DNA of 698 bases, from the NCBI RefSeq assembly GCF_003334785.1, contig NZ_QOWV01000075.1; one strand, written 5' to 3'. The notes beneath the pieces were generated by a model. That model saw nothing but the letters and a program-made list of their open reading frames with translations, was not told the origin of the DNA and made no database searches. This document shows positions 1-698 of this stretch, in pieces. The stretch comes from Escherichia coli (lineage in GTDB: Bacteria > Pseudomonadota > Gammaproteobacteria > Enterobacterales > Enterobacteriaceae). The position numbers and the translations under genes were made by a program. The first letter of the stretch is position 1; each line of letters opens with the position of its first letter.

Positions 1-1
1 T

Positions 2-667
2 CACCCGGAGCAACACCTCCGCCCCTTCCGGGGTATCCTGCAGGCGGATGCGTTCACAGGTTACGACAGGTTGTTCAGTGCAGAACGTGAAGGTGGTGCA
101 CTGACAGAAGTTGCGTGCTGGGCCCATGCCCGGCGAAAAATCCACGATGTATACATCAGCAGCAAAAGTGCGACGGCAGAAGAAGCCCTGAAGCGAATCA
201 GTGAACTGTACGCCATCGAGGATGAAATACGGGGATTACCGGAGTCAGAGCGTCTTGCCGTCAGGCAGCAGCGAAGCAAAGTGTTACTGACGTCGCTGCA
301 TGAATGGATGGTGGAGAAGAATGGTACGCTGTCGAAAAAATCCAGACTGGGCGAAGCGTTCAGCTATGTACTGAATCAGTGGGATGCCCTCTGTTATTAC
401 AGTGATGACGGTCTGGCGGAGGCGGATAATAATGCTGCGGAAAGAGCGCTTCGTGCAGTCTGTCTCGGAAAGAAAAACTTTATGTTCTTTGGCAGCGATC
501 ACGGCGGCGAGCGTGGAGCACTGTTGTACGGGCTGATCGGCACCTGCCGTCTGAACGGTATCGATCCGGAAGCGTATCTGCGCCATATCCTGAGCGTACT
601 GCCGGAATGGCCTTCCAACCGAGTTGATGAACTCCTGCCATGGAACGTAGTACTCACCAATAAATAA
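2..667 (+). CDS. IS66-family transposase (TnpC/Orf3-like), C-terminal ~221 aa; 5'-partial, true start lies upstream of the window
   Basis: The frame of nt 2 has no stop from 2 to 664 and ends at TAA 665-667. Translating 2-70 gives HPEQHLRPFRGILQADAFTGYDR, which runs straight into the track ORF 71..667. Recognised IS66 transposase motifs are GILQADAFTGYD, ACWAHARRK (nt 113-139), DNNAAERALR and the C-terminal tail GIDPEAYLRHILSVLPEWP...LLPWN. The track's start at 71 is a TTG inside the longer open frame, with no convincing Shine-Dalgarno at the right spacing, so it is not the real start. Confidence 0.9.
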   Translation, partial: HPEQHLRPFRGILQADAFTGYDRLFSAEREGGALTEVACWAHARRKIHDVYISSKSATAEEALKRISELYAIEDEIRGLPESERLAVRQQRSKVLLTSLHEWMVEKNGTLSKKSRLGEAFSYVLNQWDALCYYSDDGLAEADNNAAERALRAVCLGKKNFMFFGSDHGGERGALLYGLIGTCRLNGIDPEAYLRHILSVLPEWPSNRVDELLPWNVVLTNK

Positions 668-696
668 GCGTCAATACGGTGCTCCGTTGACGCTTA
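665..696. repeat. Perfect 10-bp inverted repeat (potential stem-loop) spanning the transposase stop codon and the IS terminus
   Basis: TAAGCGTCAA at 665-674 is the exact reverse complement of TTGACGCTTA at 687-696, separated by a 12-nt spacer (TACGGTGCTCCG) that contains a nested 3-bp CGG/CCG mini-palindrome. No U-tract follows (the window ends ...CC), so it is not a canonical intrinsic terminator. Confidence 0.8.
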
Positions 697-697
697 C
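668..697. repeat. Putative right terminal inverted repeat (IRR) of the IS66-family element
   Basis: Read from the right end inward, the reverse complement of 668-697 is GTAAGCGTCAACGGAGCACCGTATTGACGC, starting with the GTAAGCG/GTAA signature I recall for IS66-family termini. It sits immediately downstream of the transposase stop, which is the usual position. The exact extent is uncertain without the left end. Confidence 0.55.
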
Positions 698-698
698 C

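Follow-up and report, generated by a model that had tools for sequence, protein, structure and literature searches.

This 698-nt stretch of Escherichia coli DNA (hereafter the window) carries the 3′ part of a transposase gene whose reading frame runs off the left edge, and raises the question of whether the gene continues beyond that edge or is already truncated in the genome. A program-made list of open reading frames places the start in frame 2 at TTG 71, with a product of 198 amino acids. The original prediction regarded this start as an artefact of window truncation, and expected a real start codon several hundred codons upstream and a protein of roughly 500 or more residues. Translation confirmed that the frame is open back to the edge: starting at base 2, 221 sense codons precede the first stop, a TAA at 665-667. 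On its own this is unremarkable, as the chance of 23 stop-free codons preceding TTG71 is (61/64)^23, or ∼0.33.

The identity of these upstream residues was established by homology rather than by the openness of the frame. The 23 codons preceding TTG71 encode a peptide identical to residues 317-339 of the 537-residue TnpC transposase of ISEc23, a member of the IS66 family; base 2 of the window opens codon 317 of the intact protein, and TTG71 is the codon for Leu340. The translated fragment matches the Pfam domain DDE_Tnp_IS66 (PF03050; E = 3.3e-52) from its very first residue, covering model positions 118-283 of 284, and the IS66 C-terminal element (DDE_Tnp_IS66_C, PF13817; E = 2.3e-16). It also scores 221.6 bits against the NCBIfam equivalog model for IS66 family transposases (NF033517; curated cutoff 180 bits), with the alignment covering only profile positions 195-385 of 387. 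The residues upstream of TTG71 are therefore real transposase sequence, as originally proposed. The LZ_Tnp_IS66 and zf-IS66 domains and a full catalytic domain are missing both from the window and from the plasmid locus that matches it (see below). A literature search for the positions of the IS66 catalytic triad (D, D, E) did not find them.

ISEc23 (the ISfinder name, as used by PGAP) is abundant in this species. When the window was compared by megablast with 5,426 complete E. coli genomes, 4,605 contained a match. Many of the matches were 100% identical over bases 2-698, and all of these were annotated by PGAP as 'IS66-like element ISEc23 family transposase'. An intact copy (L002) contains tnpA (2307-2675), tnpB (2672-3022) and tnpC (3053-4666), the last encoding a protein of 537 amino acids (WP_000080195.1) with LZ_Tnp_IS66 at residues 60-130, zf-IS66 at 138-182, DDE_Tnp_IS66 at 196-486 and the IS66 C-terminal element at 494-530. 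From its ATG to window base 2 the distance is 316 codons. For intact ISEc23, then, both the distant start and the predicted protein size hold. This ATG has no obvious Shine-Dalgarno sequence (...TATAAAAACGGTCATG) and is located 30 nt after the tnpB stop codon; a search for the first in-frame start with a ribosome-binding site, which had been put forward as the way to find the native start, might have missed it.

The full element measures 2,530 bp. Its right end (...GCTTAC) was set at window base 697 on the basis of the left and right ends of intact copies and their 8-bp target duplications (AGTTTTTG in L005 and CTTTCCTG in L010). The inverted repeats are imperfect and share no exact seed of 9 nt, and were located by means of the GTAAGCG terminus together with the target duplications; the right repeat matches the left (GTAAGCGT...) at 22 of 30 positions. 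The related E. coli elements ISEc8 and ISEc22, also of the IS66 family, have in common with ISEc23 the tnpA-tnpB-tnpC order, the Pfam domains and the GTAAGCG.../...CGCTTAC termini. Bases 2-697 of the window thus represent 696 of the 2,530 bp and take in tnpC from codon 317 through codon 537 and its stop, together with the right inverted repeat. The features assigned to it are collected in the table.

Table. Features of the 698-nt window, with the evidence on which each assignment is based.
Position	Strand	Feature	Evidence
1..1		Last unambiguous base of the upstream ISEc38 end fragment	Extent of the ISEc38 match; A in the intact copy; query of intact copy with T
2..667	+	3′ part of ISEc23 tnpC (codons 317-537 and TAA); pseudogene remnant lacking the N-terminal 316 codons	Translation; 100% nucleotide identity; Pfam; NCBIfam; PGAP
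71..73	+	TTG, Leu340 codon of intact TnpC; mechanical ORF start in the window and in full context	ORF lists; upstream TAG
665..696		Stable stem-loop overlapping the tnpC stop codon and the right inverted repeat	RNA fold
668..697	-	Right terminal inverted repeat of ISEc23, outer end ...GCTTAC	Target duplications; repeat alignment
698..698		First base outside ISEc23; in the matching plasmid part of the neighbouring IS66-family 3′ fragment	Target duplications; divergence of L001 and L002 right after the element end; PGAP

Could the window simply have been cut from one of the intact copies? The gene would then continue for 316 codons upstream, TTG71 would be purely an edge effect, and base 1 would be a single-base variant or a sequencing error, since the window has a T where the intact copy has an A. 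E. coli offers thousands of ISEc23-like places (3,446 records of the complete genomes cover at least 80% of the window), and bases 2-698 do not separate intact from truncated copies. Base 1 argues against such an origin. Because the canonical preceding base is A, all other matches listed begin at window base 2, and the sole match over 698 of 698 bases was a truncated copy on plasmid pWP7-S17-ESBL-04_2 (NZ_AP022179.1, 85977-86674, reverse complement; the window corresponds to positions 4001-4698 of the locus extracted from it, L001). When a synthetic query was built from the ISEc23 upstream sequence of an intact copy with T placed at window base 1, no perfect E. coli match was found among 3,373 records and 7,012 places; the best reached 99.2%, equivalent to one mismatch in 120 nt.

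The T is exactly the junction base between two insertion sequences. It was found at the junction in only two plasmids, in which ISEc23 is fused to an end fragment of ISEc38, an element of the ISL3 family. In the matching plasmid, the 109 nt at L001:3895-4003 agree at every position (100% identity) with one end of ISEc38. They begin at its terminal GGCTCTTCC and take in the final ∼80 nt of its transposase gene, which is encoded on the opposite strand. The ISEc38 match ends at window base 3, and bases 2-3 form a 2-bp CA overlap common to both elements, beyond which the ISEc38 fragment extends for ∼107 nt. The plasmid and the intact copy diverge exactly at base 1: directly upstream, the plasmid has the ISEc38-derived sequence ...TTTCAGCATCT (also as ...ACATCTGGCGTTTCAGCATCT), whereas intact ISEc23 has ...GGCAGGGGAA (also as ...CCGAACCGGCAGGGGAA). 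The window consequently spans one base before the junction to one base after the element end, and such a coincidence at both edges would be unlikely for a window cut from an intact copy. The junction is rare, being present in 2 of the 5,426 complete E. coli genomes (the matching plasmid and NZ_CP069544.1, L004) and in two PLSDB plasmids.

One diagnostic base (the T that opens the window), the single record that matches exactly, and the way both window edges coincide with the limits of the remnant point to the truncated locus as the source of the window, and we consider an intact copy very unlikely. We are highly confident that the window is a dead 3′ remnant of ISEc23, whose most likely source is a virulence plasmid of the ETEC type, pWP7-S17-ESBL-04_2 being an example. 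Compared with the complete element, 1,834 bp are missing from the 5′ side, namely the left inverted repeat, both accessory genes (tnpA and tnpB) and tnpC up to codon 316; the ISEc38 end fragment stands in their place. A complete insertion sequence of this type would have two inverted repeats flanked by an 8-bp target duplication, with tnpA and tnpB upstream of tnpC. The matching locus has the right repeat and no left repeat, and tnpA and tnpB are absent upstream of the remnant in both plasmids (L001 and L004). The PGAP entry for the gene is in both cases that of a pseudogene, with the remark 'incomplete; partial in the middle of a contig; missing N-terminus'.

In this plasmid context the distant start does not exist. 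An in-frame TAG is present at L001:3957-3959, 14 codons upstream of window base 2, and no ATG, GTG or TTG occurs in the tnpC frame between this TAG and TTG71. The stop, which lies in the ISEc38-derived flank, closes the frame on the upstream side, so that TTG71 is the first available start. Accordingly, when the ORF list was compiled with 4 kb of upstream DNA, the frame was still called from the TTG (4071..4667, 198 amino acids). The original prediction had named an upstream in-frame stop in advance as the observation that would overturn it, and with this stop in place the description of TTG71 as a product of window truncation falls: the truncation is in the DNA itself. What had been expected several hundred codons upstream, together with a protein of 500 or more residues, belongs to intact ISEc23 and not to this 5′-truncated locus. 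The warning that an annotation beginning at base 71 under-calls the gene was right in that TTG71 is not the native start; an upstream extension would be wrong here, however, and the appropriate label is a 5′-truncated pseudogene.

Although TTG71 is the first start after the stop, the sequence around it gives little reason to regard it as one that is used. By reading of the sequence we found no convincing Shine-Dalgarno motif for TTG71, the AGG at 58-60 being 10 nt away and the AGG at 68-70 directly abutting it (0 nt). No promoter-like site was present on the plus strand between L001 positions 3646 and 4071, that is, in the ∼400 nt upstream of TTG71. A promoter and terminator scan of L001:3600-4800 returned two promoter-like sites, where 1.5 were expected, neither of them placed to drive TTG71, and a terminator-like hairpin inside the ISEc38 fragment. 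As judged from these sequence features TTG71 is not credible as a functional start, and the remnant is probably not expressed. A fusion of the upstream ATG-initiated ORF (L001:3827-3955) into the tnpC frame was also considered and rejected; that ORF is in another frame and stops at 3955.

These observations bear on whether the truncation might have created a gene with a function of its own. A 198-residue C-terminal TnpC protein initiated at TTG71 could act in trans on copies of ISEc23 or other IS66 elements, for instance in a dominant-negative manner like the Tn5 inhibitor Inh. The ORF is intact over its 198 codons, is 100% identical to active copies without internal damage, and is predicted as a product by gene callers in many assemblies. 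Such perfect identity is nevertheless explained by recent decay and is not a sign of selection; the start codon is a TTG and has no properly spaced Shine-Dalgarno sequence, the upstream region offers a terminator-like hairpin instead of a promoter, and the junction itself is rare. The likeness to Inh lies in the fact that the product would also be a transposase devoid of its N-terminal DNA-binding region. Inh is missing only 55 residues and arises from a dedicated internal start in an element that is itself intact. Here, in contrast, 316 codons have been deleted from the genome, part of the catalytic domain among them, and the search for expression signals found none. We therefore consider a functional truncated gene highly unlikely. 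As gene callers predict the same 198-residue ORF, some small chance of a translated product from TTG71 is left, but we regard it as exceedingly improbable that the fragment is made from this plasmid locus and influences in trans the intact IS66-family elements that share its cell, perhaps as a dominant-negative multimerization partner. If it were so, remnants such as this ISEc23 fragment would be a source of transposition regulators.

The recurrence of the 198-residue call in public data has a simpler explanation. The ORF from TTG71 is called in many assemblies (155 blocks of public assemblies). In the loci L005-L012, where it occupies coordinates 3001-3597 in each case, it is annotated as a separate gene and the upstream tnpC is split into two or three pieces; the tnpC region of L005 is 2 nt shorter than that of L002. 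The split genes likely reflect frameshifts or long-read assembly errors that yield spurious short 'IS66 transposase' proteins. Because the 198-residue calls adjoin split or frameshifted pieces of tnpC, they are by-products of gene calling.

Dead remnant is thus the preferred description of the window, and its properties follow from what has been lost. It is unable to encode an active transposase, as the native start and both N-terminal domains (leucine zipper and zinc finger) are gone, together with positions 1-117 of the 284-position DDE_Tnp_IS66 model. With only a single end it is also not mobilizable as an insertion sequence. The way in which it arose is suggested by the junction. The join point is internal to both ISEc38 and ISEc23, and two internal points joined at a 2-bp microhomology suggest that the fragments, lying in a cluster of IS remains, were brought together by deletion or by illegitimate recombination and not by simple insertion; the lost 5′ part of ISEc23 would thereby have been replaced by the ISEc38 end, joined at CA. 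The gene order of the matching locus fits this proposal: the 5′ fragment of a fimbrial-operon gene is followed by the ISEc38 end, the ISEc23 3′ end, a 3′ fragment of a second IS66-family element, a recombinase fragment and eatA. In both plasmids eatA and a CS-type fimbrial operon are found near the junction.

Several further features of the neighbourhood were recorded. Directly to the right of the window, a pseudo-CDS annotated by PGAP (L001:4699-5205) is the 3′ fragment of a second, different IS66-family transposase, and ISEc23 appears to have inserted into this older element. In a single comparison the fragment showed 85% nucleotide identity to the 3′ end of the ISEc22 copy in NZ_CP069544.1. 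That sister plasmid carries an intact ISEc22 in place of window bases ∼650-698 and the next 92 nt. On the left side, an ORF that follows the fimbrial chaperone and usher genes opens with what resembles a signal peptide (MNKTLAILLFSVSFSAYADINLYG), but only its 5′ part (L001:3827-3894) is left, because the ISEc38 terminus interrupts it at 3895; the insertion probably destroyed a gene for a fimbrial subunit here. Direct contact between an ISEc38 copy and an ISEc8 copy also occurs in the chromosome of E2865 (L003), as well as in many records of strains labelled O26, O103 or O145. In E2865 the transposase CDS annotations of the two elements overlap by 4 nt (L003:3024-3027), and the annotated start of the ISEc8 tnpC appears to be located in ISEc38 sequence.

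At the right end, the tnpC stop codon and the inverted repeat are overlapped by a strong stem-loop. It consists of a perfect 10-bp inverted repeat (665-674 with 687-696) and four inner pairs, with a folding energy of −17 kcal/mol (z = −6.3), and none of 200 shuffled sequences folded as stably. On the minus strand the stem-loop is followed by TTTATTGG, and it could there terminate transcripts that run into the element from its right-hand side. We looked for a strong stem-loop in the equivalent right ends of ISEc22 and ISEc8, where it was absent; a family-wide role was dropped, as the structure is not kept in either element.

The remnant belongs to a catalogued insertion sequence and was already annotated as a pseudogene, and in this respect adds nothing new. 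What it illustrates is that an open frame at the edge of a window, even with clear homology, does not prove that the gene continues past that edge. Here a single flanking base, the T at position 1, together with a match in the public record, shows that the truncation is in the DNA. The right call is a pseudogene with a missing N-terminus, and both a 198-residue protein from TTG71 and an upstream extension to ∼537 residues would be wrong. Since the 198-residue ORF is called as a gene in many assemblies, it makes a small but genuine contribution to the spurious 'IS66 transposase' proteins found in databases.
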